NCBI GenBank assembly: GCA_041659805.1
Contig: JBAZXP010000001.1
Location: 192,589 to 256,588 of the forward strand
DNA: 64,000 nucleotides
Direction of reading: 5' to 3'
Origin: Microgenomates group bacterium
GTDB taxonomy: Bacteria > Patescibacteriota > Microgenomatia > Daviesbacterales > UBA10151
Shown here one piece after another: positions 13,029-30,978 of this stretch (its first letter is position 1; each line of letters opens with the position of its first letter). The translations under genes were made by a program, and so were the position numbers. The notes beneath the pieces are model-generated. The model was not told the DNA's origin. It searched no databases and saw only the letters and a list, made by a program, of their open reading frames with translations.

Positions 13029-13439
13029 ATGTCCTTCTTATTAAAAACCATTACTTTAGTATTTTTTTCCCTAATTTTTCTTTACTCTTTTCAGCCTGTT
13101 TTTGCTGAAGCAGCTCCAGGAGGAGCAGGTCAACCTTGTCGCTATGAAGGTTCTGATGGCATTTTTACTGCGCTAGGTTGTGTGCCTGTTGAACCCTCAA
13201 AGTTTATTATGGCTGTCTCCCGACTGCTAGCCGGAGCTGGCGGGGGAGTTGCCTTACTATTGATGATTGCAGGGGCTTTTCGGATGATAACTTCCGGTGG
13301 TAATCCCGATGCAGTCAAAGCCGGATCAGAACAGTTTACTTCCGCCTTAATCGGCTTACTGTTCATTATTTTTGCTACACTGTTATTAAAGGTTATCGGG
13401 GTAGATATACTAAACCTACCTGGATTTGGAACAACATAA
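13029..13439 (+). CDS. VirB2/TrbC-like mini-protein, paralog 1 (signal peptide, two Cys, two TM helices around an SGGNPDAVKAG loop)
   Basis: Topology and the loop motif MITSGGNPDAVKAGSEQFTSALIGLLFIIFATLLL are shared with the five following ORFs. Confidence 0.55.
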   Translation: MSFLLKTITLVFFSLIFLYSFQPVFAEAAPGGAGQPCRYEGSDGIFTALGCVPVEPSKFIMAVSRLLAGAGGGVALLLMIAGAFRMITSGGNPDAVKAGSEQFTSALIGLLFIIFATLLLKVIGVDILNLPGFGTT

Positions 13440-13441
13440 TT

Positions 13442-13801
13442 ATGACACAACTACTAGCTCAAAAATTACAACTTCCCGGAGGAACAGAGGTAACATTACC
13501 TGTCGGAGGCAATTCTGCCATTGCAAGTCCCACAATCGGGGGAATCATCACTCCGGCGTTAGAGGCTGTTTTTTTGATCGCTTCTGTTTTAATGTTTGTC
13601 TGGATGGTTTGGGGAATCTTCCAATATATTTTTGCCGGCGGTGAAAAAGAAAAATTAGCCAAAGCCAGATCCCGGATTACCTGGGCTATAGTTGGTTTTA
13701 TTATTGTGCTACTTGCCTTTACTCTTTCCAGATATATACAAGAAATTTTCCCAGCTAGATCAGTGCCTATCACACCTATAACTGAACCGACAAATGATTG
13801 A
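13442..13801 (+). CDS. VirB2/TrbC-like mini-protein, paralog 2
   Basis: IFAGGEKEKLAKARSRITWAIVGFIIVLLAF, starting 3 nt after paralog 1. Confidence 0.55.
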   Translation: MTQLLAQKLQLPGGTEVTLPVGGNSAIASPTIGGIITPALEAVFLIASVLMFVWMVWGIFQYIFAGGEKEKLAKARSRITWAIVGFIIVLLAFTLSRYIQEIFPARSVPITPITEPTND

Positions 13802-14084
13802 TTTAGGACAACAATTTGGTTTTGCACTTCCAACGCTTGGTGCTGGTTTTAACCGGCTGGTCATGCCGGCTTTTGAAATTGCCGGTGTGGCAGTGATTAT
13901 TTACCTGCTTATAGGGGGGATTAAATATATGATCTCTGCAGGAGACAAGAATGCTGTTGCCTCCGCCCAACAAATGATAACTCATGCTATTATTGGTTTT
14001 ATTTTATTGATATTATTATTTGTAATAGTACAATTTGTACCGGAATTTTTTGGAGCTGGCGCACTCAGGATAATCGGAAGATGA
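13794..14084 (+). CDS. VirB2/TrbC-like mini-protein, paralog 3
   Basis: MISAGDKNAVASAQQMITHAIIGFILLILLFVIV. Overlaps its neighbours by 8 and 4 nt. Confidence 0.5.
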   Translation: MIDLGQQFGFALPTLGAGFNRLVMPAFEIAGVAVIIYLLIGGIKYMISAGDKNAVASAQQMITHAIIGFILLILLFVIVQFVPEFFGAGALRIIGR

Positions 14085-14419
14085 ACAAATTATTAGCAGC
14101 GGATTTTTCAAATATTATAGGAACAATTTCTCCTCCTGCAGCAATTAAACCCTTAGTGGACCAAGGTGGCCAAGGAGGCCTTAACACTGTTTTAAGAAAT
14201 GGTATTACCTTAATCTATCAAATAGCAATTGTTTTATTTCTTCTAATGATTCTTTTTAGCGCATTACAATGGATTATCTCCGGTGGAGAAAAAGAAAAGA
14301 TTGCTGCTGCCAGAGGAAGACTGACCAGCGCAGTGATTGGATTAGTAATCTTAGGTTTGGCTTGGGTGATTGTTTCTGTTTTAGGAACTATCACCGGAAT
14401 TAAACTGGGAGGAGTATAA
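14081..14419 (+). CDS. VirB2/TrbC-like mini-protein, paralog 4
   Basis: QWIISGGEKEKIAAARGRLTSAVIGLVILGLAWVIV. Confidence 0.55.
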   Translation: MNKLLAADFSNIIGTISPPAAIKPLVDQGGQGGLNTVLRNGITLIYQIAIVLFLLMILFSALQWIISGGEKEKIAAARGRLTSAVIGLVILGLAWVIVSVLGTITGIKLGGV

Positions 14420-14468
14420 AACTAACCACTCACTTGACAAGGTTTTTATTCTGTGCAAACATTAATTT

Positions 14469-14813
14469 ATGAGTCCTACACCAATTCCAACATTTAGCTT
14501 AAGTAATCTTGGTGTTGGCATTGCCAGCAATACCCCTATCGGAGACATTATTGGTAATGCTATCCGAATCATCATCATTATCTCTTTAATCGCAGTTTTA
14601 GCAATGTTAATCTTCGGAGCTTTTCAATGGATCATCTCAGGTGGTGAAAAAGAAAAGGTTGCTGCTGCCAGAGGAAGAATTACCAATGCCTTAATCGGAC
14701 TGGCCATTTTAGGCTTAGCTTTCGTGATTGTTACAGTAGCCGGTACTTTAGTCGGTATTAATATTTTTGAAAATATTCAAATCCCAAGCTTAGGTGATAC
14801 AACCGCAAGGTAA
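14469..14813 (+). CDS. VirB2/TrbC-like mini-protein, paralog 5
   Basis: QWIISGGEKEKVAAARGRITNALIGLAILGLAFVIV, nearly identical to the loop of paralog 4. Confidence 0.55.
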   Translation: MSPTPIPTFSLSNLGVGIASNTPIGDIIGNAIRIIIIISLIAVLAMLIFGAFQWIISGGEKEKVAAARGRITNALIGLAILGLAFVIVTVAGTLVGINIFENIQIPSLGDTTAR

Positions 14814-14855
14814 TTCTTCCTTGACCTAATTTCTTCTTTTTAGTACTGTTAAGGT

Positions 14856-15221
14856 ATGAAAAAATATCTGTCCTTTATCTTTTCTGTACTATCTCTTTTA
14901 CTCTCTGCACCCGCTTATGCAGCCACTACAGTAAATCCTCTTCCTGCCGGAAAGGATCAATTAATACAACTTATTACCAGAATTATTAATCTGGCAGCTG
15001 AGGCTGCATTCACTGTTTTGTTAATCATGATTATTTACGCAGGAATTAAGTTTCTAACTTCCGGTGGAGACCCGAAAGCAATCGGAGCAGCTTCTGGCAC
15101 TATCACATGGGCTCTTCTTGGTATTTTGTTCATGGCTATAGGTTGGTTATTCTTATTATTGATTAAAAATTTCACTGGCATTGACGTGACTAAATTCTGT
15201 CTTGATTTTCGTGGCTGTTAG
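14856..15221 (+). CDS. VirB2/TrbC-like mini-protein, paralog 6 (clear signal peptide ending AYA)
   Basis: LTSGGDPKAIGAASGTITWALLGILFMAIGWLFLL. Confidence 0.55.
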   Translation: MKKYLSFIFSVLSLLLSAPAYAATTVNPLPAGKDQLIQLITRIINLAAEAAFTVLLIMIIYAGIKFLTSGGDPKAIGAASGTITWALLGILFMAIGWLFLLLIKNFTGIDVTKFCLDFRGC

Positions 15222-17384: not shown

Positions 17385-19103
17385 ATGTCTGCCCTACTAA
17401 GAAAAGTTGTCGGTTGTCGGTTGTCGGTTATCGGCCTGTTTTTATTTATAATATTTGCAGTTAATTTCTTTATCCTCACTCCATCTGTTTTTGCAGCTGA
17501 TAACTGGCAAAAACTAAACCCTTCTAACTATCAAGACAGAATTGCTACTCAAAGATATTTTACGAATCTGATAGTTGCAGCGAATGTGGCTATGTCCGGG
17601 GAAGATCCTTTAAACGGACCTGCTTACAGCGAAAAGGTTACAGTCACGAGTACTGATGGTGCATACAACATGAATTCAGTCCCCGGTATTGGTCCGGGAG
17701 ATAAGCAAGGAGGGATGATCGGTATGGCAACTAAATCAATCGCTTCTATAATATCCACCCGTCCAACTTCCAGCCAGGAATATCTGGCTAATTTAGGAGA
17801 GAACATTGGAATCGCTCCCAAGCCTGCTTATGCTCAGATTACTGGGTCAGGACAAAATGTCATTGATCCTGTTTTAAAACTTTGGCAGGTCACCAGAAAT
17901 ATTGCCTATACTGGTTTTATTTTGGTCTTCATGGCAGCAGGAGTCATGATCATGTTCCGCCAAAAACTTAATCCTCAAACAGTCATTGGAATTCAACAGG
18001 CATTACCAGGCATTGTGGTCGGTTTAATTTTGGTTACCTTTAGCTATTTTATCGCAGCACTCATTGTTGATTTGTCGTTTGTCGGCACCCGGCTGGTTAC
18101 TGAAATATTTGTGAGTTCAGGAGAAACTAATTACTTCGGATGCACAGTGAAATGTGAAGAGGGTGGAAATCCCAAGCAAAAAAATATAGACGGGCTTCGT
18201 CAAACTTATAAAGATTCCGATGCTTTTAATATGTTTCAAAGAGTTGCTTTAAGAGTAAATAATGTCACTGATGTATTTAGAAATGTCTGGGGAACGCTGA
18301 TCACTAATCCTGATGTCCCACCTGAACCAGAAAGCCAGGAAGCTTTACTGCAAAGACTTAGTGTAACAACACCTCTTCCAGGTGATGAAGCTGCAGTATC
18401 ATTTGCTGGAGCAGGAGGGGCAGTAATCAAAGATCAGGGAATTCAGGGAGTAGTTGCAATGGGTGTTGCAACAATCGCTTCTTTGTTGGTTCCTCTAATC
18501 TTAATGATTGCTTTAATGATTCAATTTATTAAATTAATTATCGCCTTGCTGATATCATATTTACAGATCTTGTTGATGGTTATTTTTGGACCAATCTTAA
18601 TTATGGTTTCTGCCATCCCAGGCAGAGGGGGTGCATTAAGCTACTGGTTAAAAGCTCTTTTTGCAAATGCTTTAGTTTTTCCAGCTGTTTTTGCCGGATT
18701 TTTGTTTGCCGGTTTACTTTTAGAATGGGCTGGTACCAGCGGACCTACTTTTACAGCCAACATGCCTATGTTTGGGGGGTTACATGCTAATGTCCTAAAA
18801 TCATTACTGGCTTTTGGGGTTTTGCTGGGATTACCTGCAATTCCTGATATGGTCAGAGATGCCATGGGAGTTAAAACTCCTCAAGGATTTATGAAAGCAG
18901 CTGTGGGTGGATTTATGGGTGGAATCGGAGGTGCTCAAGCAGGTTATGGTCAGGCTATGCAGCGAACTGGTCTGTCAGCAAGAAAAGAAGCTATGGAGAA
19001 AGCACAACTGGAAACGGCTGCGCACAATCGTCCTGGAGAAGGCGGACCACAAAATACAGGAGAAAGAATATTGTCTTGGTTGCCGAGTGGTGGACGACGT
19101 TAA
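17385..19103 (+). CDS. TrbL/VirB6-like polytopic membrane protein
   Basis: Signal/TM helix, a ~130-aa extracytoplasmic N-domain, about 6 TM helices, and a Gly-rich C-terminal tail (GGFMGGIGGAQAGYGQAMQ) typical of TrbL. Lies in T4SS-like context. Confidence 0.55.
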   Translation: MSALLRKVVGCRLSVIGLFLFIIFAVNFFILTPSVFAADNWQKLNPSNYQDRIATQRYFTNLIVAANVAMSGEDPLNGPAYSEKVTVTSTDGAYNMNSVPGIGPGDKQGGMIGMATKSIASIISTRPTSSQEYLANLGENIGIAPKPAYAQITGSGQNVIDPVLKLWQVTRNIAYTGFILVFMAAGVMIMFRQKLNPQTVIGIQQALPGIVVGLILVTFSYFIAALIVDLSFVGTRLVTEIFVSSGETNYFGCTVKCEEGGNPKQKNIDGLRQTYKDSDAFNMFQRVALRVNNVTDVFRNVWGTLITNPDVPPEPESQEALLQRLSVTTPLPGDEAAVSFAGAGGAVIKDQGIQGVVAMGVATIASLLVPLILMIALMIQFIKLIIALLISYLQILLMVIFGPILIMVSAIPGRGGALSYWLKALFANALVFPAVFAGFLFAGLLLEWAGTSGPTFTANMPMFGGLHANVLKSLLAFGVLLGLPAIPDMVRDAMGVKTPQGFMKAAVGGFMGGIGGAQAGYGQAMQRTGLSARKEAMEKAQLETAAHNRPGEGGPQNTGERILSWLPSGGRR

Positions 19104-19107
19104 TGGT

Positions 19108-21081
19108 TTATCTGCCTATATCGCTAAACCCTTGTTTAAATATGTGACCCAATACACCTAAAATAAAGCCTATAATGCCATCTTTTACAGTCGACGCCAA
19201 ATTTGCTACTCTCCAATAACGACCGAGCGCTTTTTCTAAAACTTTTTTTCTGGTATCCAAGGTAAAAAACGGTGGCTTGTTTGGATCAGTTAACCCTGCA
19301 AGATCATTTGCCATAGATACAATTTCAGCGTTGTTATATTTTGGTTTGCCTGTCCTTTCTTCTCTCGTGGTTTGGGCAAAATCAATAAAATCAACCGCTA
19401 AGGCTTCTTTTGCCTCATCTTGATTTTTTTTTGAAAAAGCAAAAGCATCCATTAACTTACGTAAAGATTCAACAGTTGGATTCCTTAAATAGCTTTCAGA
19501 TGTCTTGGTTAAAGCATCTCGCACACCTTCTGCACCCTGAACACATCTACTAGCCCAAAGGCCCATTAAACCTCTCCCCATTGGACTAAAATCACGACCT
19601 TCCAATTTTTTAAAATCTACTCGGCCAACCTTACCGCCCGCATTATGATCTTTTCTGTCTAACCATTCCATTCCTGGTACACCATATTTAATAAAACCAC
19701 TTTCTTTTTCAAACAGACTTGCAACCCCTTCATTTCTGGTAAAAAAATCTCCCCCATAACAATCAACCTTATTAATTAATTGAACATGAGCATGTATTGT
19801 TGCCTGTTCTTTAATGACCAAATCACGCTGTTTCATGGTTCTTCTGGTATCATAATCACAGCCATCGCCTCCTCCTATCCAATCAAACTTTACCTCTCTT
19901 TTATGTTGTTTACCATCAGGGTCAGTAACATAATATACAGCGCCATTAAGCTTTTTTCCTTCATAATAATCGTCTGTAATACGAAGTTCTTCTGGTATTG
20001 GCTCTAATACCGGTAATTCAGGAAGGGGTGTTTTATTTTCTACTGCGTCTTCTAGATCTTTTTTATATTTTCGATATTCTGCTATCTGTCTTTTTTGATA
20101 TATAGACCATTTGCTTTCTGCAACCCATACATCCTTACCGTCTTTGTCTTTTTTCTTTTCCGTAAACACCATAATTCCTTTATCAACCAAAGAATCAAAC
20201 ATCACAGCCCGGCAAGTAAAGCGGAACATTCTTTCTGCTAAAAGTTGTGCTGCTGCATAATCTTCTGGTTTACCTCCAAATTCTTTGACTAAATGTCCCT
20301 GAACTTTTGCGGCAAACAACGGTCTGTTCTCAAACGCACTAAAAACAGTAAATTCTTCGCCGTGTTCCTCGTAATATTGCAGGGCCTGAATAAAAGGATT
20401 AAATTCTGTTTCTGTTTTTGGACTAATTTGTTTCATTCCATAGATGGCAGTGAAGTGTTCTGGCTGCAGTTTTTCCTGAGCAGCTTTTATTACCACATTA
20501 AGATCAGAGGAGTTTTCATATTGCAGAGAAATCTCACGGAAAATCATTCTGGCTTCTACTTCTTCCAGCATATTTTTTGCTTCATCTTGCATATTTTTTG
20601 CTTCAGAATACGCCCTTTTTTCTTCATCCGTCTCTCCTAAAGGAATTTCTTCCCCTTTTAAGCTGCCTAAAATTGAATTTATTCGGGTATACTCAGTAGT
20701 AATTTGTTGGCTGAGACTGCCTTTTTCCAGTTCTATTCTGCTTAAAAGAGCTCTGGTCCTTTTGCGGGCTACTTCCGCATCCTTTGGCCAATAAACCCAC
20801 ATTTGGCGTTGCATTTGATCAAAAATTCTAACTGATTTAAACCCCGGTTTTTCAGGAAGCGGGGAATATCTTTCCACTATTTCCCAAGGCAGAAGCCTTG
20901 GATCTACCTCACGACGTCCGGTATAAGGATCAATTGTTTCCTCATCTTCTATATCTACATGGGGGGTTGCAGCGCGTCTTTCCTCTGCAGGCCTAGCTGC
21001 CGCTGCTTCTGTGGGTGGTATTCCTCCTGTTTCAGGTCCTGGACCTGTTCCTCCATCTGGCATAATTCTTTCTCTTTCCAT
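19108..21081 (-). CDS. large soluble protein of unknown function (657 aa); the first ~50 codons are markedly GC-rich and Pro/Gly/Ala/Glu-rich
   Basis: Long uninterrupted ORF with no recognisable P-loop or HUH motifs. N-terminus MERERIMPDGGTGPGPETGGIPPTEAAAARPAEERRAATP. Confidence 0.6.
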   Translation of the reverse strand: MERERIMPDGGTGPGPETGGIPPTEAAAARPAEERRAATPHVDIEDEETIDPYTGRREVDPRLLPWEIVERYSPLPEKPGFKSVRIFDQMQRQMWVYWPKDAEVARKRTRALLSRIELEKGSLSQQITTEYTRINSILGSLKGEEIPLGETDEEKRAYSEAKNMQDEAKNMLEEVEARMIFREISLQYENSSDLNVVIKAAQEKLQPEHFTAIYGMKQISPKTETEFNPFIQALQYYEEHGEEFTVFSAFENRPLFAAKVQGHLVKEFGGKPEDYAAAQLLAERMFRFTCRAVMFDSLVDKGIMVFTEKKKDKDGKDVWVAESKWSIYQKRQIAEYRKYKKDLEDAVENKTPLPELPVLEPIPEELRITDDYYEGKKLNGAVYYVTDPDGKQHKREVKFDWIGGGDGCDYDTRRTMKQRDLVIKEQATIHAHVQLINKVDCYGGDFFTRNEGVASLFEKESGFIKYGVPGMEWLDRKDHNAGGKVGRVDFKKLEGRDFSPMGRGLMGLWASRCVQGAEGVRDALTKTSESYLRNPTVESLRKLMDAFAFSKKNQDEAKEALAVDFIDFAQTTREERTGKPKYNNAEIVSMANDLAGLTDPNKPPFFTLDTRKKVLEKALGRYWRVANLASTVKDGIIGFILGVLGHIFKQGFSDIGR

Positions 21082-21171
21082 AAACCCTCCTTTTCTTAAC
21101 CCAAGCCTAAAAATTGCCTGAATTATATCCTAAAGCAGAGCTTATATCAAATTTAGTATAGCACAACTAAT

Positions 21172-22203
21172 CTATGCTGCCTGCCCTGGAGACCAACCGC
21201 AAACCCTGTCTTCCCCATCCTCTCCTTTAATCCTCCCAGGACAACTGGTAAGCTCTCCTCTTTCCATTCTTTTCTCTTCATCAGGACCGGGCTCCCAGCC
21301 ACACTTTCGGCATCTGACTTTCTCGCAACCTGTACTCACTTCCTGGGAATTCCCGGCAAAAACATTAAAAGCAGTATTGGCTTTAGGTGGACAGCTGGAA
21401 CCTCTATTTCCGACCATACCGGATCTTCCTGCTATATTTACAAATTTTTCCACATTAACCCTGCCTGTATCAGCTGCTGTTTGTTGATATATATCCAAAG
21501 CCTGATTTACTGTTTGTTGCTTTAAGATTAAATCTTCACCGTTTCTGACTTGTCTGACCTGCTTTAAGGAAATATCAGGCAACAGCTCCTCTAATATATA
21601 AGTCCAGTCGCAATTATCACTTAATTCAAGAGGAATAGACCGCACTTCGTCATTTGATGAAAAATACGGCTTATTATGAGAATAATTCGCCAAACCCCGG
21701 GCAAACTCCAAACATTTAGCTTCTTTTATATCCAAAACAATGGCCCTGTTAAATAAAATCTGTTTCCCGTCTTGTTCCCTGATTTCACTGACAATAATCT
21801 TAGAAACCGAATAGGCTCCAGCCTCTGGTGGACTAACCCAGGCAATAACGCCTGACTTTTTACCCTTAACTATCTTTTGTATACTGTCAAAAGCCTGAAA
21901 TTCTAACTCTCCGACTTTGGAATCTCGTAAAATAACTTCTTCTACTAATTTACCGGTAACAGGGGAAAGAAGTTTACCATCTTCACGGATTGTATAAAAG
22001 TAAGGATCAGGAATTCTTTTTGTTTCCATGCATAAAGAAGCAACCTCTTCCGCAAATTGAGTTTTTGGCTTGCCCTCCCAGGCGCGGGCGCCATCTCTAA
22101 GCTCCCGAATACCAATACTATTATCTTGAGACGGAATAGAACTACTCTGAGGTCTTAAATGGGCATCTATTGAGGAGTCTGTTAAAGTTTCTAATCTGGT
22201 CAT
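21172..22203 (-). CDS. unknown protein with a C-terminal Cys-rich (zinc-ribbon-like) tail
   Basis: CEKVRCRKCGWEPG...SCPGRIKGEDGEDRVCGW at the C-terminus. No other recognisable motifs. Confidence 0.55.
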   Translation of the reverse strand: MTRLETLTDSSIDAHLRPQSSSIPSQDNSIGIRELRDGARAWEGKPKTQFAEEVASLCMETKRIPDPYFYTIREDGKLLSPVTGKLVEEVILRDSKVGELEFQAFDSIQKIVKGKKSGVIAWVSPPEAGAYSVSKIIVSEIREQDGKQILFNRAIVLDIKEAKCLEFARGLANYSHNKPYFSSNDEVRSIPLELSDNCDWTYILEELLPDISLKQVRQVRNGEDLILKQQTVNQALDIYQQTAADTGRVNVEKFVNIAGRSGMVGNRGSSCPPKANTAFNVFAGNSQEVSTGCEKVRCRKCGWEPGPDEEKRMERGELTSCPGRIKGEDGEDRVCGWSPGQAA

Positions 22204-22245
22204 AGTTTCCTGCTCGGGACAAATGCGGTTCGGTCTCCTGGCTTA

Positions 22246-22330
22246 ATCAGAGTATCGGCATATCAGCAAATCAGCAGATCAGAAATAAATATCTGACACG
22301 CTGACTCGCCGACACACTGACAAACTGAAA
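22246..22330. repeat. imperfect ~40-bp-arm inverted repeat built from 8-bp-periodic units (5 x ATCAG arm, 10-nt AT loop, 5 x CTGAC arm), located in the leader of the minus-strand gene 21172..22203
   Basis: ATCAG at 22246, 22254 (ATCGG), 22262, 22270, 22278. CTGAC at 22293, 22301, 22309 (CCGAC), 22317, 22325. Most arm mismatches are A:C on the plus strand, which become U:G wobbles on the minus strand. Confidence 0.6.
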
Positions 22331-22540
22331 TTACAGTTGCGGCACAGCTCCCGAGTCTCACGGGATTCCCATTTACCTTAACTCTTTTTAACGAGTGGTA
22401 AACCGCCCTTTTAAATTACACAACTATGTTGTTTTTGTCAATTCCCATCATGAAAGCACCAGATACATTAAGAATAGGCTAAATTGATCTCTTTTGAGAT
22501 GCTTGCGAGTAAAGTTTTCACGAGTTATACATAAAGGACT

Positions 22541-23725
22541 ATGGAACCACATCCTATTCCACAAAATGTAACTTCTTTTGAATTCCACTTAGTAGGGGAT
22601 ATGACTCTAAAACAATTTATTTATTTAGGAGCCGGACTCGGTACTGCTTATTTACTATACGCCACACTCTTTTTTTCAATCCCTGTTTTAGCTATCCCAT
22701 TAATCCTTATTTCCAGCGTGCTTGGAATAGCTTTTGCTTTTGTGCCTATTTACGACCGGCCTTTTGATCATTGGGTTGGTGCTTTTTTCAGAGCTGTTTA
22801 TTCACCGACAAAGGGTTCCTTTAAACTAAGATCTAATCCTAAGTTAAAGGTTACTCCTAGTGATCCTTTTTTACAAAACAGGCTACAGCTATACCTTTCT
22901 TCCATGGGAATGACTGTTAATCTTTGGGATAAGCAAATTCCGACTGCACCTGCCACATCTACCCCCACTCCAACACCAGCAATCCCTGAGATTAAGGAGA
23001 TTAAAGAATCAGAAAAACAGGCTACCTTAGCAGAAAATATCTTAACTAAAACTTTAGGGAATATCCAAGCCCAAGCTCAACCGGAAAGTACCAGTCATCT
23101 ACCTTCCCAACAGGAATTAACAAATCTAGTGGAGATGGCTAGACAAGCACAAGTCTTGCAGGGAAAAATATCTGATACAGAAAAATTAATTAAACAGATG
23201 ACAACCACAACTAAGCAGACAGAAACAACCCAGATTCAGTCCAGTTTAAAAGCTCTCTTACAACAAACAGAAGAGTTATACCAAAAAACTTCCAGCATGA
23301 CTCAGGCAACAACACATACAACTGCTGCCCAACAACTGCCGCAAACAGTACCGATAACACCGGCCCCACCTATTTTAACTCAACCGGCAGTTGCTCCGAA
23401 GGTAACAATAGTCCAACCTTTGGCACACAAGGAAACGCAGGTAGTTTTAACCTCAACTCCGAATGTTATTAACGGCATTGTCGGTGATGATGCCGGAAAT
23501 TTCCTGGAAAATGTCATCGTAATTATTCACGATAAAGACGGAATGCCTGTCCGGGCTTTAAAAACAAATAAATTAGGCCAGTTTGCAGGAGCGACACCTT
23601 TACCTTTAGGTGTTTATACAATCACCCTGGAAAAAGAACATTTTACCTTTCAAACATTACAAATAACGCTTGATAATTCAGTGCTTGGACCTCTTCGAAT
23701 AGTTGCTAAAAGAGGAGGACAATAA
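22541..23725 (+). CDS. PrgI/VirB3-like two-TM N-terminus fused to a long Gln/Thr-rich coiled region and a C-terminal carboxypeptidase-regulatory-like beta-sandwich domain
   Basis: N-terminus FEFHLVGDMTLKQFIYLGAGLGTAYLLY resembles the PrgI family (FGLTLRQF...). C-terminus GIVGDDAGNFLENVIVIIHDKDGMPVRALKTNKLGQFAGATPLPLGVYTITLEKEHF. RBS AAAGGA before the ATG. Confidence 0.5.
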   Translation: MEPHPIPQNVTSFEFHLVGDMTLKQFIYLGAGLGTAYLLYATLFFSIPVLAIPLILISSVLGIAFAFVPIYDRPFDHWVGAFFRAVYSPTKGSFKLRSNPKLKVTPSDPFLQNRLQLYLSSMGMTVNLWDKQIPTAPATSTPTPTPAIPEIKEIKESEKQATLAENILTKTLGNIQAQAQPESTSHLPSQQELTNLVEMARQAQVLQGKISDTEKLIKQMTTTTKQTETTQIQSSLKALLQQTEELYQKTSSMTQATTHTTAAQQLPQTVPITPAPPILTQPAVAPKVTIVQPLAHKETQVVLTSTPNVINGIVGDDAGNFLENVIVIIHDKDGMPVRALKTNKLGQFAGATPLPLGVYTITLEKEHFTFQTLQITLDNSVLGPLRIVAKRGGQ

Positions 23726-23726
23726 T

Positions 23727-24632
23727 TTGACTACCAGCCAAGAATTTATTCCGATTAGCGATGTCAGTAAAAATTTAGTATTTCAAAAAGACGGATCTGT
23801 AGCAATTATCCTCTCTGTCTCAGCCGTTAATTTCGCACTTCTGTTTGAAACTGAACAAATTTCCATTATTGATTCATTCGCAGGTCTTTTGAATTCCTTA
23901 TCCTTTCCCATTCAAATTGTAATTTATTCCAAAATCATGGACGTTTCTTCCTATTTGCATACAATTGACAATGCCCTTGCCCGTCAAGCCAACCCTCTAC
24001 TTAAATCAATGACCTTAAAATACCGTGATTTTGTGGAAAAAAGCATTAAAGATAACAATGTTCTGGATAAAAGGTTCTATGTTTGCATTAAATTAACGTC
24101 TTTAGAATTAGGTCTACTTCCTTCCAATATGGAAGAAAAAACAAAAAAAGTTACAACACTCCTTGAACCAAGACGGGACCATTTGATCAGACAACTAGAC
24201 CGACTTGGCTTAAAGGCAAAGCAGCTAACAACAGAGGAAATCATTAAATTATTTTATGAAATCTATAACCCGCCCATTACAACAAGTGCTGACTTACCTG
24301 TACAAAGCAATGTCAAGGCTACTCCCTTATTGGAAATCCATCAGCCACCCGCCAACCCTCCGACGGACGCACCAAGGGTAGAAAATAATCTGCCGCCAAA
24401 ACTCCGGCCGATTAAACCGGCTTTGACTCAACCGAGCATTCCAGCACCTGCTGTAAAACCGACAGCTCAAACAACGATTCTTGTTCCGGTCGCCACGGCA
24501 GCACCGGTAGTGACGGTTCCAATCACACAACCGCCAGTCAATCCGACACCAACGCCTATCCTTAACCAAGCCGCTCCGCAACACAATAGCCCTTTTGTGG
24601 TAGAAGAGCTACCTGATGACGATGGATCCTAA
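23727..24632 (+). CDS. VirB4/CagE/TrbE-family protein, N-terminal portion, ending in a Pro/Thr/Ala-rich tail
   Basis: FIPISDVSKNLVFQKDGSVAIILSVSAVNFALLFETEQISIIDSFAGLLNSLSFPIQIVIY matches the N-domain of Gram-positive VirB4 homologs. TTG start at 23727 preceded by an AGAGGAGG RBS. The track ORF begins at an upstream in-frame TTG at 23703. Confidence 0.6.
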   Translation: MTTSQEFIPISDVSKNLVFQKDGSVAIILSVSAVNFALLFETEQISIIDSFAGLLNSLSFPIQIVIYSKIMDVSSYLHTIDNALARQANPLLKSMTLKYRDFVEKSIKDNNVLDKRFYVCIKLTSLELGLLPSNMEEKTKKVTTLLEPRRDHLIRQLDRLGLKAKQLTTEEIIKLFYEIYNPPITTSADLPVQSNVKATPLLEIHQPPANPPTDAPRVENNLPPKLRPIKPALTQPSIPAPAVKPTAQTTILVPVATAAPVVTVPITQPPVNPTPTPILNQAAPQHNSPFVVEELPDDDGS

Positions 24633-26379
24633 GCAAAAACAACTAACATTTGAAGATGCAGTGGCACCCTATGAAATGGAGATGGATTTTTCGTTCCTAA
24701 AAATTAATCACCGCTATTTACGTTCTTTTTTTGTATCTGCTTATCCCCGTTATGTTGAACCAAACTGGCTGGAACCGTTAATTTCTTTTGAACATTCAAT
24801 GATTTTATCCATGTTCATCTACCCCACCAGCTCAGCCGGAATCTTAGATGATTTAAAAAGAAAAATTGCGGAAATGGAGGCCACTATCCAAACTGATCTA
24901 GAACGGGGACGAGTTGTTAATCCAACTGTAACAATAGCACTTGATGACGCCAAGCAGTTACAGGAACAACTAGCTAAAGGCTCGGAACGATTTTTCCAGT
25001 TTAGTTTATATATCGATGTCCCTGCAGATTCCATAGAAGAGCTAAACAATAAATCACAATTAGTCCAATCCACCCTGGGTAGTATTTCAATTACTTCGCA
25101 TCCGTTAATGCTCCAGATGAAAGAAGGGTTTGAAAGCACTTTGCCTTTGGGACAAGACCCTTTGTATTTGGCACATAATATGGATACCACCTCTCTTGCC
25201 ACCACTTTTCCTTTTGTCTCATCAGAGCTTACTTCTCCGGACGGAGTAATCTATGGCATTAATGCACATAACGATTCCTTAATTATTTTTGACAGGTTTA
25301 GTCAGGAAAACGCCAATTCAGTAGTTTTTGCCACAGCCGGAGCCGGAAAATCTTATTTTGTGAAACTGGAATCACTGCGTTCATTGATGCTGGGCGCTGA
25401 AATAATTATCATTGATCCGGAAAAAGAATATGTCGATTTAGCCAATGCTGTGGGAGGAGATTATATTAATTTCTCTACTGCCTCCCCGGTTAAAATCAAT
25501 CCTTTTGACTTGCCTGATATAGCCAACAGCGAAGAAGACGAGTTGGGAAGAAAGATTTTATCTTTAACCGGTTTTTTAAGGTTGGTTTTAGGCGATTTGA
25601 CTGCCAATGAAGTTGCAGTTTTAGACCGGGCTTTAAATGCCACTTATAAATTAAAAGGTATTACTGCCAATGTTTTTAATAAAGCTGACCCTACCAGTAA
25701 ACAAAAAATCGAAGCTCCGTTAATGGAAGATTTATATAAGATTTTAATCGGTATGGAAGACACTATGGCTGGCAGTCTGGCAATCCGTTTGGAAAGGTTT
25801 ATTAAAGGCTCTTTGGCAGGCATTTTTTCTGCCCAATCCAATATCAATATCAATAACCCTTTTACTGTTTTTTCGGTTCGTGAATTGCCTGATCAACTGC
25901 GACCTTTGGCAATGTATTTAATATTGGATTATATTTGGACCAAAATCAGACGCGAGATTAAAAAAAGAATTTTAGTAGTGGATGAAGCCTGGTATATGAT
26001 GAAGTATCCTGATTCAGCTTCTTTTTTAGTGGAGATGGTCAAGCGGTCCCGAAAATATTACCTGGGTGTCACCACCATATCTCAGGATGTGGAAGACTTT
26101 TTAGGGCAAGACCGGGGTAAGGAAATTATCTCCAACTCAGCTATGCAAATTTTATTAAAACAAGCGCCTGTTTCCATTGAAAAAATAGGAGCTGTTTTTA
26201 ATCTGTCTCAAGGAGAAAAAAGACTACTAACCACTGCAGGTGTCGGACAAGGGCTCTTTTTTGCAGGCAATGTGCATATTGCCATGTCAATTGTGGCCTC
26301 AGATGAAGAACATCAGCTGATCACTACTAACCCAAGAGAAATTTTAGAACGCCAGGAAAAAGAAAAAGGAGATAAATAG
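24616..26379 (+). CDS. VirB4/CagE/TrbE-family ATPase, central and C-terminal portion
   Basis: AYPRYVEPNWLEPL, Walker A ATAGAGKSYFVK, Walker B RILVVDEAWYMM. Overlaps the upstream ORF by 17 nt in the +1 frame. Confidence 0.8.
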   Translation: MTMDPKQKQLTFEDAVAPYEMEMDFSFLKINHRYLRSFFVSAYPRYVEPNWLEPLISFEHSMILSMFIYPTSSAGILDDLKRKIAEMEATIQTDLERGRVVNPTVTIALDDAKQLQEQLAKGSERFFQFSLYIDVPADSIEELNNKSQLVQSTLGSISITSHPLMLQMKEGFESTLPLGQDPLYLAHNMDTTSLATTFPFVSSELTSPDGVIYGINAHNDSLIIFDRFSQENANSVVFATAGAGKSYFVKLESLRSLMLGAEIIIIDPEKEYVDLANAVGGDYINFSTASPVKINPFDLPDIANSEEDELGRKILSLTGFLRLVLGDLTANEVAVLDRALNATYKLKGITANVFNKADPTSKQKIEAPLMEDLYKILIGMEDTMAGSLAIRLERFIKGSLAGIFSAQSNININNPFTVFSVRELPDQLRPLAMYLILDYIWTKIRREIKKRILVVDEAWYMMKYPDSASFLVEMVKRSRKYYLGVTTISQDVEDFLGQDRGKEIISNSAMQILLKQAPVSIEKIGAVFNLSQGEKRLLTTAGVGQGLFFAGNVHIAMSIVASDEEHQLITTNPREILERQEKEKGDK

Positions 26380-28166
26380 TGGCTGCTTTAAACCCCAGAC
26401 TAATAGAAGACACTATACATTTAATTGAAACATACCAACGAAGCGGAGAAGGGTCTGCTTTTAGAAGGCGCTTTGATATGGCAATTGCCAGAGATGTCAA
26501 CGCCACCTATAAAAACCGGCCTTTAAAATTATATTTCGAGATATTGGCAAGCACCAATGAAGAAAAATTTGGGGACTCTTACAAAGATATCCGCCGGCTC
26601 GTTAAACATGATAACGAAGGAATCATCAAAGAAACACTTCTGAAAGTAAGCCCTAATGATTTAAATAATCTGGCCGACCATTTAGAACAAGCAAAGGAAA
26701 ATATTAATTCAACGACTTACCCAAAGGAGGAGGTCGATGATATTAATAAAATTGAAGCAGATTCCAAAGACCGGATCCAAAAACGAATTGCACATGCAAA
26801 AAGATTAGACCAAACCGAATATCTTGCAGTTACTAAAAAGACCCCAAAAGAAATAGAAAAAGAGGAAGAAGAGGCAGAAGCAGAAACAGGCCCCGGCTCT
26901 TCTCCTGAGCAGAAAAAATCATACAGCCCGGCAACCGAAGAAGAGAAAGCTAGGTTGATGGCAGCCCTGAATACACCAAAAAAAGAAGTTCCCAAGAATA
27001 TATTGGTTGGGCCGAGAGGAGAACCGTTAATAACCATCCCTCAAGAACGATTAATCGAACCGGAGGAGATAACCTTTGAACCAAGAGCTCTTGAGCCAAC
27101 AACCCCATCATTGCCTCAAACACCTGACTTAGGCTTTGCCAGAAGAATTATTAAAACAGGGAAGGTAACGGAAACCGCCGGAGCAGCAGAGGCAGGCATC
27201 AGTTTTACTACAGGAAGAGTGGCGGCAACAGGTGCTGCCAGAGCAGGAGTAATTGCAGCCGAGGGTGGAGCACGGGCTGTTGCCAGATTAGGTGCAGGAG
27301 CTGCTGCCAGAACCGGTGCGGGAGTATTGGCTAAACTAGGATTTTCAGCTGCGACAGGGATAGCTACAGGTGGCGTCGGTTTAGTAATTGGATTAGCTAT
27401 AACCGCAGTCACTACTTTTGGCGATCAAATAAAAAAACTGGGAAAGCTTGTTCTTCAGGTTACAATTGCTATTTTTTGTGTTTTTATTTTAATGTTTTTC
27501 GGGAATTGGGGAGAGAAAATGAACTCTTTACTGCCTCCTTATTCAATTGGGGAGGCTGCAGGTTTACCAACAGCCACACCAACAGGGGCTATTACACCAA
27601 CCCCTACAGGTCCAATAACACCCACCCCAGAAGCCGCTATTGCGAGCTGCCCCATTCCCGGCGGAACAATTACCTGTGGAAGTTTAAGCACTCCCAGAGG
27701 GGGCTGTGCACACTGTAGCGCTGCTTATAAAAGCACGTCTTTTTACCGCGATACATGTGACAGAGACATAAACGGAAGAATAATAGAAAATCGTTGTTTA
27801 TGTGATAAATATCCTGCCACATCTACAGGTCTTGATATTGCAGGAGCAGGAGGGACTCCAATTATATTGCCATCTATTAATAACCATATCGTTGTTTGGA
27901 CCCATCTTTCTCCTGAAGAAGGTAACAGCAACCAGGCAATCCAAAAATTCACAGGCATAGATCAGACTACCGAACAAAGCTATTATTTACAATTTCACCA
28001 TACTAAACCCGGTTCAGGGAGGTCTGGTCAATCAGGACAGGTTGGTGCTAATATTTGTAGTACTACTGCCTGTGGAGAAGAACATGTTCATGTTCAGATA
28101 GGTAATTCCGGTAATAGCCCCGGCAGCACAGGGTGGATGGATGCAGCAGCAACCATGTGTCAATAA
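26379..28166 (+). CDS. membrane protein with a Gly/Ala-rich repeat region and a C-terminal M23/LytM-like peptidase domain (first motif His apparently replaced)
   Basis: GTG start overlapping the upstream TAG. TGxAxAG repeats (AGAAEAGISFTTGRVAATGAARAGVIAAEGGARAVARLGAGAAARTGAG), a TM helix, then STGLDIAGAGGTPIILPS...YYLQFHH...EEHVHVQI, resembling M23 HxGxD / HxH elements. Confidence 0.5.
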   Translation: MAALNPRLIEDTIHLIETYQRSGEGSAFRRRFDMAIARDVNATYKNRPLKLYFEILASTNEEKFGDSYKDIRRLVKHDNEGIIKETLLKVSPNDLNNLADHLEQAKENINSTTYPKEEVDDINKIEADSKDRIQKRIAHAKRLDQTEYLAVTKKTPKEIEKEEEEAEAETGPGSSPEQKKSYSPATEEEKARLMAALNTPKKEVPKNILVGPRGEPLITIPQERLIEPEEITFEPRALEPTTPSLPQTPDLGFARRIIKTGKVTETAGAAEAGISFTTGRVAATGAARAGVIAAEGGARAVARLGAGAAARTGAGVLAKLGFSAATGIATGGVGLVIGLAITAVTTFGDQIKKLGKLVLQVTIAIFCVFILMFFGNWGEKMNSLLPPYSIGEAAGLPTATPTGAITPTPTGPITPTPEAAIASCPIPGGTITCGSLSTPRGGCAHCSAAYKSTSFYRDTCDRDINGRIIENRCLCDKYPATSTGLDIAGAGGTPIILPSINNHIVVWTHLSPEEGNSNQAIQKFTGIDQTTEQSYYLQFHHTKPGSGRSGQSGQVGANICSTTACGEEHVHVQIGNSGNSPGSTGWMDAAATMCQ

Positions 28167-29148: not shown

Positions 29149-30249
29149 TTAACTTAAATTAACAGGCATCACAATACACTCCAAACCTTCTTCCCCCATT
29201 GGTTTAAAAATAGAGGCAGAAAGCGGCCCGGAAAGTTCAATTATTACCTGGGAAGAGCTAAAGGCAGACAGGCTGTCTTGTAAATACTTAGTATTAAAAG
29301 AGATTTGAATTTCTCCACCCTCACACTCTGCATCAATCTCCTTTTTTTGTGATCCCAACTCTTTTGTTTCTGAGGTTAAAACCAGCTTTTTATCTAAATT
29401 CTGTAATTTAACTGTATTAGCCTCGCCTCTGGCAAAAACCGACGCCAGCTTAACTGCTTTTAGGAGCTCGCTTCTGTCTGTAATGATCCTAACCTTAATC
29501 TCTGTTGGAATAATCTTCTCCCAGGCAGGAAATTGTCCTTCAATTAAGCGGGAAGAAAGCTGGGTGTTACCAAAAGAAAACACAATTTGGTTCTGATCAT
29601 CAGAAACAGCTACTTTAATCTCGTCAGACTCATCTTCTCCAATCAACCTAATAACTTCTTCGAAGGTGCGCCTGGGAACCAAAGCCTTAAAACTGGAATC
29701 ACTTTCTGTGACTACGCTTTTGTGGGCCAGTCTATATCCGTCTGTTGCCACAAGTTGTAATTTCTTATTATTTATCTCGGTTAAAATACCGGTTAAAATC
29801 GGCCGACCATCATCAACTGCCGCTGAAAAAATCACTTCCGGCAAGGCCTTCACAAGTAATTTAGGATCAATAGAGGCTGCCTGCTTACCTGATAAGGGAA
29901 TATTAGGAAATTCGGTAGCACTGATTCCGTTTAAAGAAGATGAAAATGTCGGAGTAGTGAGTTCAACAGATTCATCACTGGCACTTATTTCTATTTTTTC
30001 ACCGCTTAAATTAGAAATTACATCAACCAGCATCTTTGCGGGAATAGTTATCTCGCCTTCCTCAATAACATCTGCTTTCACAGATTTCACGACACCGATT
30101 TCTAGATTAGTGGCTGATATTTTAACTCTGTCTGAATCTGCCTGAATCAAAACATTACCCAAAACAGGCAGTTGAGACCTGATTCCGGCCGAACGGGAAA
30201 CAGAAGAAAGCACTGGCATCAAATCCTGTTGTAAAATCGTAAATTTCAT
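29149..30249 (-). CDS. dnaN: DNA polymerase III beta sliding clamp
   Basis: MKFTILQQDLMPVLSSVSR...ATNLEIGV is a canonical DnaN N-terminus; 366 aa. Confidence 0.9.
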   Translation of the reverse strand: MKFTILQQDLMPVLSSVSRSAGIRSQLPVLGNVLIQADSDRVKISATNLEIGVVKSVKADVIEEGEITIPAKMLVDVISNLSGEKIEISASDESVELTTPTFSSSLNGISATEFPNIPLSGKQAASIDPKLLVKALPEVIFSAAVDDGRPILTGILTEINNKKLQLVATDGYRLAHKSVVTESDSSFKALVPRRTFEEVIRLIGEDESDEIKVAVSDDQNQIVFSFGNTQLSSRLIEGQFPAWEKIIPTEIKVRIITDRSELLKAVKLASVFARGEANTVKLQNLDKKLVLTSETKELGSQKKEIDAECEGGEIQISFNTKYLQDSLSAFSSSQVIIELSGPLSASIFKPMGEEGLECIVMPVNLS

Positions 30250-30255
30250 TAATTT

Positions 30256-30708
30256 TTATTCTTTGTGGGCAGAAATATATTTATGGGCATCTTCGTCTGA
30301 GATCTTAATCAAGCGAAAATGAACGCGCCCGGTGACTACTAGGTTTTTAATGTGTTTTTCCTCTTCTGTCAAGGTAGCAAAGTTCCCGGATTTTACTTCA
30401 ATAAAGTCGATTCGTTCATTATTCTTAATCCCAATAAAGTCAATCGGTTGTCCTAAGGGAATAATCCGGTCGTAATCATACCTTAATTCTGCATAAGTTA
30501 ATAACTCTGCTACCTTACCTTTTTGTGGATTAATTGAGCCCTGAATTGTTTGTAATACTCTAGCTGGTAAATCTGCAACTTGCTTATAAAGTGATATAAA
30601 ATCTGTGGGAATTTCCTGTGGTTTTGGTTTAACACTCAGTCTTCCAAATAAATAAACAATGATTAGTACAAGTATTCCTATTAAGTAATATGTAAAGTTT
30701 ATATCCAT
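30256..30708 (-). CDS. membrane-anchored PD-(D/E)xK nuclease, archaeal Hjc/Holliday-junction-resolvase-like
   Basis: N-terminal TM helix, then IDFIGIKNNERIDFIEVKSG (D...E.K catalytic arrangement). Confidence 0.5.
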   Translation of the reverse strand: MDINFTYYLIGILVLIIVYLFGRLSVKPKPQEIPTDFISLYKQVADLPARVLQTIQGSINPQKGKVAELLTYAELRYDYDRIIPLGQPIDFIGIKNNERIDFIEVKSGNFATLTEEEKHIKNLVVTGRVHFRLIKISDEDAHKYISAHKE

Positions 30709-30818
30709 GCTTATCCACTTACAAAGCAGTTCTAGTTCTCTCTTTATTTATACAGCTGTAGTATTACTAGGGTCTGTTAAGATGTGTATTCACAGCCACA
30801 ACCCAGCTTCAGGTTACT

Positions 30819-30966
30819 TGGGGATAAGGATAAGTGTAAAACTTAAACCTAGTTATCCCCTCTCTTGGACTTTTTTAACCACAACTTTTCGCCTACTCTT
30901 CGTGTGTAAAAAGTATATCACAACTGTGGATAAAGTGGTGGATAACTTTAAGAGTTTTGGGGATAA
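30819..30966. promoter_or_regulatory. cluster of DnaA boxes (candidate oriC part 1) between dnaA and the downstream nuclease/dnaN genes
   Basis: Perfect TGTGGATAA at 30925..30933. One-mismatch GGTGGATAA at 30937..30945. TGGGGATAA at 30819 and 30958. TTATCCCCT at 30853. Confidence 0.6.
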
Positions 30967-30978
30967 GTGTGTTGAAAG

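Follow-up and report, generated by a model that had tools for sequence, protein, structure and literature searches.

What are two genes of no recognisable family doing on the opposite strand in the middle of a secretion locus, and what controls them? The question is raised by a 64,000-nucleotide stretch of DNA from a Microgenomates group bacterium (assembly GCA_041659805.1, contig JBAZXP010000001.1, positions 192,589 to 256,588 of the forward strand; hereafter the window), in which a gene of 657 aa (the large gene, 19108..21081, minus strand) and one of 343 aa (the small gene, 21172..22203, minus strand) lie within a plus-strand locus resembling a type IV secretion system (T4SS). Bacteria belonging to the candidate phyla radiation (CPR), or Patescibacteria, are obligate epibionts with a minimal metabolism. 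For the one species tested, the T4SS-like system of these bacteria is essential, and its role has been described as 'completely unknown' (PMC11665869). A first-pass annotation, made from the sequence alone, had placed both open reading frames (ORFs) opposite to the T4SS genes, with coordinates and strand that proved exact, and had overlooked a cobalamin (vitamin B12) riboswitch immediately ahead of the small gene. The riboswitch belongs to a known family and is in itself ordinary; what is unusual is its target and its location, that is, a ligand-defined regulatory handle on a conserved protein without known fold inside a T4SS locus. We tentatively favour, at somewhat less than an even chance, the reading that the small protein is made only under B12 scarcity and acts in cobalamin acquisition or handling, the large protein being a separate component on the T4SS side. 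On this view, a module repressed by B12 lies divergently within the T4SS-like locus near oriC in Microgenomatia (CPR/Patescibacteria).

The aptamer lies at 22214..22418 on the minus strand and was recognised by the Rfam covariance model RF00174, with a long insertion in the P6 region, an extension that the aptamer of the related locus L003 lacks. With 51.2 bits it lies above the gathering score of 31.5, and the match extends over model positions 1-189 of 189 (whole-window E 7.8e-10). It carries the B12 box AAGCCAGGAGACC and shows the core elements GGGAA and GCCGCAACUGUAA in the cmscan alignment; the B12 box and the core elements (GGGAA; GCCGCAACUGUAA; AGCCAGGAGACC) are all visible both in the window aptamer and in 14 loci. 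Its 3' end stands about 10 nt ahead of the small-gene ATG. Just 5' of the riboswitch, a promoter-like TTGACA-17 nt-TAATTT element could be read from the sequence (22413..22441, minus strand), which would act as the promoter, and a related locus (L001) has the same TTGACA...TGTGTA.TTT arrangement ahead of its aptamer. The aptamer is predicted to bind cobalamin and to alter expression. An exact 11-nt copy of a core element elsewhere in the window (CTGTGCCGCAA, 49388..49398, plus strand) was considered as a second riboswitch and set aside as a chance match; it lies in a solute-binding-protein gene and no other aptamer features were seen there. A literature search gave no report tying cobalamin riboswitches to CPR bacteria or to T4SS loci.

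Is the riboswitch a lasting property of the small gene? Related loci were gathered by exact-protein look-up, from GTDB genomes and from metagenomes, and clustering at 95% identity left 18 unique small-family loci plus L001, whose very divergent protein occupies the same slot. An aptamer, either RF00174 or RF01689 (AdoCbl-II, for adenosylcobalamin), scored above the gathering threshold in 14 of the 17 unique loci with upstream sequence and just below it in two (L017, 35.5 against 36.5; L015, 29.0 against 31.5; E<1e-3), while in the remaining one, L022, no more than a remnant of the aptamer core can still be recognised. Since the small proteins of aptamer-bearing relatives share only 33-47% identity with that of the window, the association of riboswitch and gene must be old and maintained. 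Compensatory changes were found in four of the five P4 pairs, with both sides changed, among eight loci; covariation was assessed for P4, as the variable P6 insertions upset the alignment of the other stems. Two aptamer classes (RF00174 and RF01689) thus serve the small-gene family, and together with the two types of expression platform described below, found on one family, they argue strongly for real B12 control, as far as sequence comparison can tell.

The expression platform (UCCCGAGCAGGAAACU, 22204..22219, minus strand) stands directly before the ATG and includes the Shine-Dalgarno (SD) sequence, leaving no space for a terminator between the window aptamer and the start codon. Ahead of the start codon, each of the 14 unique loci examined has the motif UCC-CG-N(1-2)-GCA-GGA(G), so that the SD sits within an invariant platform element, and RNAalifold paired the platform UCCC with the aptamer-core GGGA in seven of eight sequences. 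These features suggest the following switch. With B12 bound, the platform UCC would pair with the SD GGA to form a P13-like hairpin, whose loop CG^GCA may kiss the invariant L5 sequence UGCCG, and hairpin and kissing loop together would turn translation of the small protein off. Without B12, the UCCC would pair instead with the aptamer-core GGGA and the SD would be free. We infer the P13 hairpin, the L5 kissing loop and the SD sequestration from complementarity. A model in which the platform competes with P4 was rejected, as the platform is constant while P4 covaries. One relative, L025, carries an AdoCbl-II-type aptamer (5547..5681) followed by CCCCUCGAAGAGAGGGG-U6 immediately ahead of the ATG; this GC-rich hairpin plus U6 looks like a terminator, unlike the SD-sequestering type seen elsewhere. 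The conserved platform and ATG of L001 lead into a 15-codon upstream ORF (MPVFRNLLRIKEVFL, 8021..8080), the stop of which shares bases with the start codon of the divergent zinc-ribbon protein (ATGA), an arrangement that suggests translational coupling via a leader peptide.

What, then, does the riboswitch control? The small protein has 26 relatives in a single-sequence search and 167 in a profile search; for the large protein, exhaustive HMMER scanning of 1.84 billion representatives returned 41, of which 12 stand at E<1e-30. Because relatives exist for both, the two ORFs are real genes and not chance. The first-pass annotation had seen no familiar motif or family in either, and this view was sustained: neither the two proteins nor their family members gave a significant Pfam, NCBIfam, PADLOC or PHROGs match, and neither protein matches a PDB family or a PDB fold. 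Remote homology searches and structure prediction, which it had recommended, gave confident models for both proteins and no known fold. A defence-system or phage origin was discarded on the absence of PADLOC and PHROGs matches.

The small family conserves the motifs DPY, WVSPP (W-x-SPP), SKIIVSEI (SK..SE), LFNRAIVLD (LFNRA..LD), (G/S)SCP and TAF, and its alignment holds a set of invariant or nearly invariant polar residues, namely D66, Y68, S124, K135, S139, E140, N152, R153, D158, C164, R188 and C271. The last of these is nearly invariant and belongs to the S-C-P motif (SSCP, aa 269-272; 21388..21399, minus strand), flanked by the invariant S270 and P272, in a flexible linker ahead of the zinc ribbon (aa 274-295 at a predicted local distance difference test score, pLDDT, below 50). 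That C271 serves as a ligand for metal or cobalt, or works as a redox cysteine, is speculative. The first-pass annotation had also described a CxxC...CxxC-like zinc ribbon at the end of this protein. A conserved Cys cluster is indeed present (aa 293-335; 21199..21327, minus strand; C293, C298, C301, C321 and C335), with the family pattern CxxC...C...C, but its identity as a zinc ribbon or rubredoxin-like element draws only weak, generic profile matches of the L37Ae, rubredoxin-like and Prok-RING types; profile searches of PDB sequences with the small protein likewise returned generic zinc-ribbon matches only. This cluster is the sole part common to the small protein and the divergent L001 protein of the same slot.

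The AlphaFold2 (AF2) model of the small protein has a pLDDT of 82, with a core above 90, and begins with two helices, followed by a small antiparallel sheet with helices packed on it, a helical subdomain, the disordered linker and the ribbon. Foldseek found nothing significant for it in the PDB (best E 3.8e-3, TM-score 0.24), and what it returned was noise, with weak PAS/GAF-like sheet matches and hydantoinase-family matches at a TM-score of 0.24. No transmembrane (TM) segment or signal peptide was found, the maximum Kyte-Doolittle hydropathy (KD19) being 0.84. The best reading of the model is a cytoplasmic protein of a new family, probably with an alpha/beta core and a C-terminal zinc ribbon. 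Readings as a PD-(D/E)xK nuclease or an E2-like protein were dropped, since the motif spacing is wrong and Foldseek returned neither of these abundant folds. The S-C-P motif followed by a four-Cys ribbon has a superficial likeness to TSCPD, the Cys-rich tail of class II ribonucleotide reductase (RNR), and in L022 the small gene adjoins an NrdJ that bears TSCPD; however, homology of this region to TSCPD or the NrdJ tail found no support. No member of the small family (profile A2) matches TSCPD PF12637, and hhalign of the family against the L022 NrdJ C-terminus gave 15% probability, on the ribbon knuckles alone.

The genomic setting of L022 links the small gene to B12 in a second way. On this short contig the small gene comes directly after a class II RNR (nrdJ; Ribonuc_red_lgC 2.7e-126, plus TSCPD) and a PduO-type cobalamin adenosyltransferase (pduO; Cob_adeno_trans 2.8e-55), and the small protein there is a bona fide family member with all motifs retained. 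Because the riboswitch is conserved and the L022 gene adjoins nrdJ and pduO, we place the small protein in B12 economy. Cobalamin-riboswitch regulons comprise B12 biosynthesis, transport of B12 or cobalt, and isozymes of B12-dependent enzymes (PMC3766115). A transporter role was rejected for both proteins, which have no TM segments (KD19 maxima 0.84 for the small and 1.39 for the large) and no transporter domains; since a soluble protein cannot be a transporter and this one resembles no isozyme, corrinoid handling is the role that we prefer. The small protein, whose conserved core looks enzyme-like or ligand-binding and which has a nearly invariant Cys within its flexible linker as well as a Cys4 ribbon, would bind, reductively process or deliver scavenged corrinoid towards PduO and the AdoCbl-dependent RNR NrdJ. 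The 657-aa protein would be a separate, only partly co-expressed component, hypervariable and with its own promoter-like element.

Several points weigh against this reading. Pfam, NCBIfam, Foldseek against the PDB and profile searches gave no homology or fold likeness to B12-binding, B12-processing or transport proteins, including the B12-binding Rossmann domain, CblC/MMACHC, PduO/CobA/EutT and DUF4465/BtuG, and a protein without a TM segment cannot itself be a transporter. The nrdJ-pduO neighbourhood comes from one contig, L022, whose aptamer is degenerate, and the surroundings that are overwhelmingly conserved are those of the T4SS and not of B12 genes. Apart from L022, no B12 enzyme was found in the 64-kb window or in the other collected loci, and no NrdJ or PduO homologs in the 358 kb of sequence collected. 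Finally, the proposed platform pairings use invariant bases and are beyond the reach of covariation.

How firmly do the two genes belong to the secretion locus? In every locus with enough flanks, dnaN, small ORFs, a gene of the 595-aa type, VirB4, TraC-like and PrgI follow one another on one strand; after PrgI, with strand reversed, come the riboswitch, the small gene and then a large or giant gene; and converging on these are the VirB6-like gene, a hydrolase in some loci and the pilins. Co-occurrence of the pair with the pilin and VirB4 genes, which the first-pass annotation had put forward as a check, was thus borne out, the pair lying in the same opposite-strand slot in every such relative; the loss from syntenic loci that it had named as refuting the idea was not seen. 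The exceptions are two divergent members without T4SS genes beside them: L022, and L023, in which the small gene is followed by unrelated genes (dehydrogenase, CBASS, LexA, methyltransferases) and no large-slot gene occurs downstream. Since L022 and L023 carry the small gene without T4SS neighbours, the small protein can occur apart from the T4SS. The suggestion that both genes encode system-specific components (substrate, adaptor, DNA-processing protein or regulator) therefore stands in part: they are fixed residents of the T4SS locus, but for the small protein B12 economy, and not a substrate, adaptor or DNA-processing role, is indicated.

The large protein was at first sight an orphan, with one relative in a word-indexed search, a status that the 41 relatives of the exhaustive search removed. 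None of 32 aligned family members carries a Pfam domain. Its AF2 model (pLDDT 82.7; predicted TM-score, pTM, 0.81) is mostly helical with a few hairpins. No matching fold came up for it in the PDB (best E 0.23) or in BFVD, Foldseek against the PDB returning only helical-repeat noise at a TM-score of about 0.1. Its positional orthologs are 23-33% identical, and, judged by sequence, the large gene evolves much faster than the small one. The profile of its family (A3) finds the large protein in the same slot of L001, L002, L010 and L011; elsewhere the slot holds proteins of 505-1549 aa that fall outside the A3 profile and have no Pfam domain, and the giants among them (1221-1549 aa) share the N-terminal peptide with the large family and little else. 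Conservation within the family is confined to the extreme N-terminus (MERExxMP[ED]G..GPE) and a C-terminal hydrophobic and basic helix, with a variable middle; the peptide M..[ER]..M[PAS][ED]G..P.PE is kept in most of the 32 family representatives (<50% identity). The C-terminal long helix (aa 621-657; 19111..19221, minus strand), ending in hydrophobic and basic GIIGFILGVLGHIFKQGFSDIGR, is the most hydrophobic segment of the protein, with a KD19 of 1.39 against a TM cut-off of 1.6, and its character is retained across the family. It is possible that this helix is a membrane-binding tail. The large protein would most likely lie near the T4SS, on the cytoplasmic side of the membrane, as a membrane-proximal, fast-evolving T4SS partner, accessory or effector-like.

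The first-pass annotation had drawn attention to a GC-rich start of the large gene encoding a disordered Pro/Gly/Ala/Glu/Arg-rich tail. The description is correct: the first 150 nt have a GC content of 50% against a window mean of 37.5%, within the top 2% of 150-nt windows, and the tail (aa 1-48; 20938..21081, minus strand; leading peptide MERERIMPDG..GPE) has a pLDDT below 50. As a sign of anything unusual, however, it dissolves into amino-acid composition. GC at third codon positions (GC3) is 0.20 in this segment against 0.27 in the rest of the gene, whereas at first and second positions (GC1+2) it is 0.65 against 0.44; because GC3 is not raised and GC1+2 is, the GC-rich start reflects the Pro/Gly/Ala/Glu/Arg codons of the disordered tail. 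A foreign origin of the 5' end was rejected on the same ground, the effect arising from codon positions 1 and 2.

Nor do the two genes seem to form a joint pair. Between them (21082..21150, minus strand) lie a promoter-like TTGATA-17-TATAAT element (21150..21122; 11 of 12 consensus positions), a conserved 5' untranslated region (5'UTR) and a strong SD (AAGGAGG) of the large gene. The 60 nt ahead of its ATG are nearly identical between the window and L001 (9129..9188), though the proteins are only about 35% identical, and for this reason the large gene probably has its own promoter and a functional 5'UTR; the region may be a conserved regulatory RNA or DNA element. In the giant-protein loci L003 and L007, the equivalent upstream region has an inverted repeat, GGAAGTTCTATG...CATAGAATTTCC, and L008 retains the CATAGAATTTCC arm ahead of its large-slot gene. 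On the other hand, no terminator was seen between the small and large genes in the window, and as the gap is about 30 nt in L010 and the ORFs overlap in L011, partial co-transcription is likely. With its own promoter-like element and faster evolution, the large gene is probably not one functional unit with the small gene, and adjacency is all that links the large protein to B12.

The same evidence can be read in other ways. We consider it unlikely, though worth stating, that the small protein, possibly with the large one, is a B12-sparing backup that is switched on when B12 is too low for NrdJ and opens a B12-independent route to deoxynucleotides, one way being a T4SS-like machine activated or adapted to scavenge DNA or deoxynucleosides from the host. 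The logic would be that of riboswitch-controlled nrdDG, nrdEF or metE isozymes, and isozymes of B12-dependent enzymes are standard targets of cobalamin riboswitches (PMC3766115). The L022 order of B12-dependent RNR, riboswitch remnant and small gene fits such a backup, as do the fixed place in a relaxase-lacking T4SS locus of unknown role (PMC12102498, PMC11665869) and a zinc ribbon that could bind nucleic acid. However, the small protein has no likeness to an RNR, kinase, nuclease or nucleotide-salvage enzyme and no P-loop or nuclease motif, 343 aa and the predicted fold are incompatible with an RNR, and the link to DNA uptake is wholly conjectural. It is likewise doubtful that the two proteins are a T4SS pair responding to a B12 cue, in which the small protein is an adaptor, chaperone or regulator recognising the N-terminal peptide of the large one, the large protein is an effector or membrane-proximal accessory, and the riboswitch ties production to B12 as a nutritional or host-contact signal. 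Synteny with the T4SS locus in every locus with sufficient flanks speaks for it, and the hypervariable slot proteins (505-1549 aa), of which the giants keep the N-terminal peptide, resemble effector families that share a recognition signal; divergence from the prgI-virB4 operon is a typical position for a regulator. Yet the L022 and L023 members have no adjoining T4SS genes, and L023 has no downstream large-slot gene either; moreover, the many invariant polar residues of the small protein suggest an active site or a ligand-binding one more than a chaperone surface, no homology to known T4SS adaptors or chaperones appeared, and the literature search gave no precedent for B12 riboswitch control of secretion components.

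Less probable still, in our estimation, is a historical accident, by which a Microgenomatia ancestor acquired riboswitch and small gene in its T4SS locus and stable gene order around oriC kept them there; the large gene would encode an unrelated, lineage-specific protein, and neither gene would have a tie to the other or to secretion. The conserved promoter-like element of the large gene, the occurrence of the small gene elsewhere and the toxin-antitoxin and ATPase genes that stand between the two genes in several loci speak for such an accident, but the pairing and its order persist down to about 33% identity although the region tolerates insertions, and the gap of about 30 nt in L010 and the overlapping ORFs in L011 look operon-like. 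We also give little credence, at present, to the bolder idea that the T4SS-like machine of Microgenomatia is partly used to pirate B12 or a B12-related commodity from the host, with the small protein as cytoplasmic corrinoid receptor or processor on the inner side of the channel, the large protein, hypervariable and tethered to the membrane, as docking or host-specificity partner, and B12 starvation arming the uptake module. If true, it would give the CPR T4SS its first physiological role and its first small-molecule regulator. Corrinoid handling by the small protein, with the large protein as a separate T4SS-side component, therefore remains the reading that we put forward, in the tentative terms given above.

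The remaining features of the locus are those of a known machine. The minus-strand pair is sandwiched by a VirB6-like polytopic membrane gene (17385..19103, plus strand), which is convergent with it, and the divergent plus-strand set of PrgI (VirB3-like), TraC-like/TrsD-like and VirB4 genes (22541..26379), assigned by Pfam to an MPF-FATA-type T4SS (PrgI 5.5e-8, TraC_F_IV 8.5e-6, P-loop_TraG 7.4e-25). The VirB6-like gene has no Pfam match; its stop is 4 nt from that of the large gene, and homologs occupy the same place in all loci. VirB4 is split in the window (23703..26379, plus strand) into two overlapping ORFs, one for a TraC_F_IV/TrsD-like N-terminal protein of 309 aa whose tail is Pro-rich, the other for a P-loop protein of 587 aa, in agreement with the TrsD plus VirB4 pattern of Patescibacteria (PMC12102498). 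Beyond the VirB6-like gene lie a glycoside hydrolase and an array of VirB2-like pilin genes; the array (13029..15221, plus strand) comprises at least five short ORFs in tandem. The homologous ORFs of relatives match PF18895 T4SS_pilin (VirB2-like), in keeping with what has been described for Microgenomatia. The ORF 26379..28166 (plus strand, 595 aa) has no Pfam domain, is conserved and always follows VirB4; inside it, 27150..27610 (plus strand) has the highest GC content of the window, up to 61% per 150 nt, and is probably another low-complexity coding tract. The T4SS locus adjoins dnaN and dnaA (29149..32313, minus strand), and the cumulative GC skew reaches its minimum at about 31-32 kb of the window, consistent with a replication origin near these genes. 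The locus is the oriC-proximal chromosomal MPF-FATA-type T4SS described for Patescibacteria (PMC12102498).

The borders of the small-large module are an insertion hotspot, with bAvd/23S-rRNA-IVP-like four-helix proteins, MazE/PIN, HicA, ParE-like proteins, AAA_14/DUF4143 ATPases and AbiEii at L002 7127..7492, L003 1137..1839 and 8676..8912, L004 5609..6144, L006 3640..4014, L007 11239..12429, and L024 4797..5924 and 7730..8449; in several loci, toxin-antitoxin and ATPase genes have been inserted between the small and large genes. The region tolerates insertions, yet the module stays put. On the L023 contig (Ga0214473_10003763), which bears a small-family gene, a CBASS-like pair of Cap15 effector and SMODS cyclase (2970..4482, minus strand) stands beside LexA and two DNA methyltransferases. 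Elsewhere in the window, four tRNA-Ser genes (GGA, CGA, GCT and TGA anticodons) and one tRNA-Arg precede a transfer-messenger RNA (tmRNA) gene of 86 bits (1896..6493 and 7680..8080), and a 961-aa ORF (36426..39311, plus strand), an NAD-dependent epimerase/dehydratase fused to DUF4012, adjoins a polysaccharide-biosynthesis (flippase-like) gene.

These findings bear on two matters, B12 supply and the T4SS. The family of the small protein has an independent genomic link to the AdoCbl-dependent RNR and PduO, and is a testable candidate for a missing step of B12 acquisition or handling in CPR bacteria. T4SS function is possibly coupled to B12 status. Inducible genetic tools are being sought for the CPR group (PMC11665869), and the riboswitch is a native ligand-responsive expression element in it.

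Among known systems, the locus itself is closest to the MPF-FATA-type T4SS of Patescibacteria, with which it shares VirB2-like pilins, glycoside hydrolase, VirB6-like, PrgI, TrsD/TraC-like and VirB4 genes, a place beside dnaN and dnaA, and a lack of relaxase (PMC12102498). The survey of these systems by Quinonero-Coronel et al. (2025) makes no mention of the two genes, of a riboswitch or of cobalamin (PMC12102498), and neither protein nor its relatives gave a Pfam or NCBIfam match to T4SS families (VirB1-11, VirD4, Prg/Trs/Tra). The conserved small protein beside a hypervariable large one that keeps a terminal peptide is reminiscent of adaptor or chaperone-effector pairs. Known examples are VirE1/VirE2 and IcmS-IcmW with the Dot/Icm effectors. 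The present pair differs from them in showing no homology, and some members of the small family have no T4SS beside them.

With isozymes of B12-dependent enzymes (metE, nrdDG, nrdEF/nrdAB), the small gene would share expression only at low B12, and in one lineage (L022) it adjoins a B12-dependent RNR. It differs in having no homology to MetE or to any RNR class and in an incompatible size and fold; no match to MetE, NrdD/NrdG, NrdA/B or NrdE/F was found, and the models are neither a TIM barrel nor a 10-stranded RNR barrel. As to the mode of control, class-II cobalamin riboswitches of the env8 type exert translational OFF control by an L5-L13 kissing loop. The window resembles them in a design without terminator, in which the SD lies in a short, hairpin-forming element right 3' of P1 with a loop complementary to L5, and differs in its long, class-I-like P6 insertion; the L5-L13 pairing in the window is a prediction in which both partners are invariant, and the relative L025 departs further with its terminator-like platform.

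Being a CPR bacterium, the organism is presumably auxotrophic for B12 and dependent on scavenging it, and the B12 salvage and transport operons (btuB, btuFCD, ECF-CbrT, BtuM, btuR/pduO) offer the remaining comparison. The window family has in common with them an RF00174 or RF01689 aptamer in its 5' leader, an SD-sequestering design, in the window, that predicts repression by B12 and, in L022, adjacency to pduO and nrdJ. In contrast, the small protein has no TM segment, signal peptide, ABC/ECF/TonB domain or known B12-binding domain, nothing in the PDB matches its fold, and its locus is a T4SS and not a transporter operon. The system is thus a cobalamin-riboswitch regulon whose target is an undescribed protein family inside a secretion locus, and it is that target and that place that are unusual.

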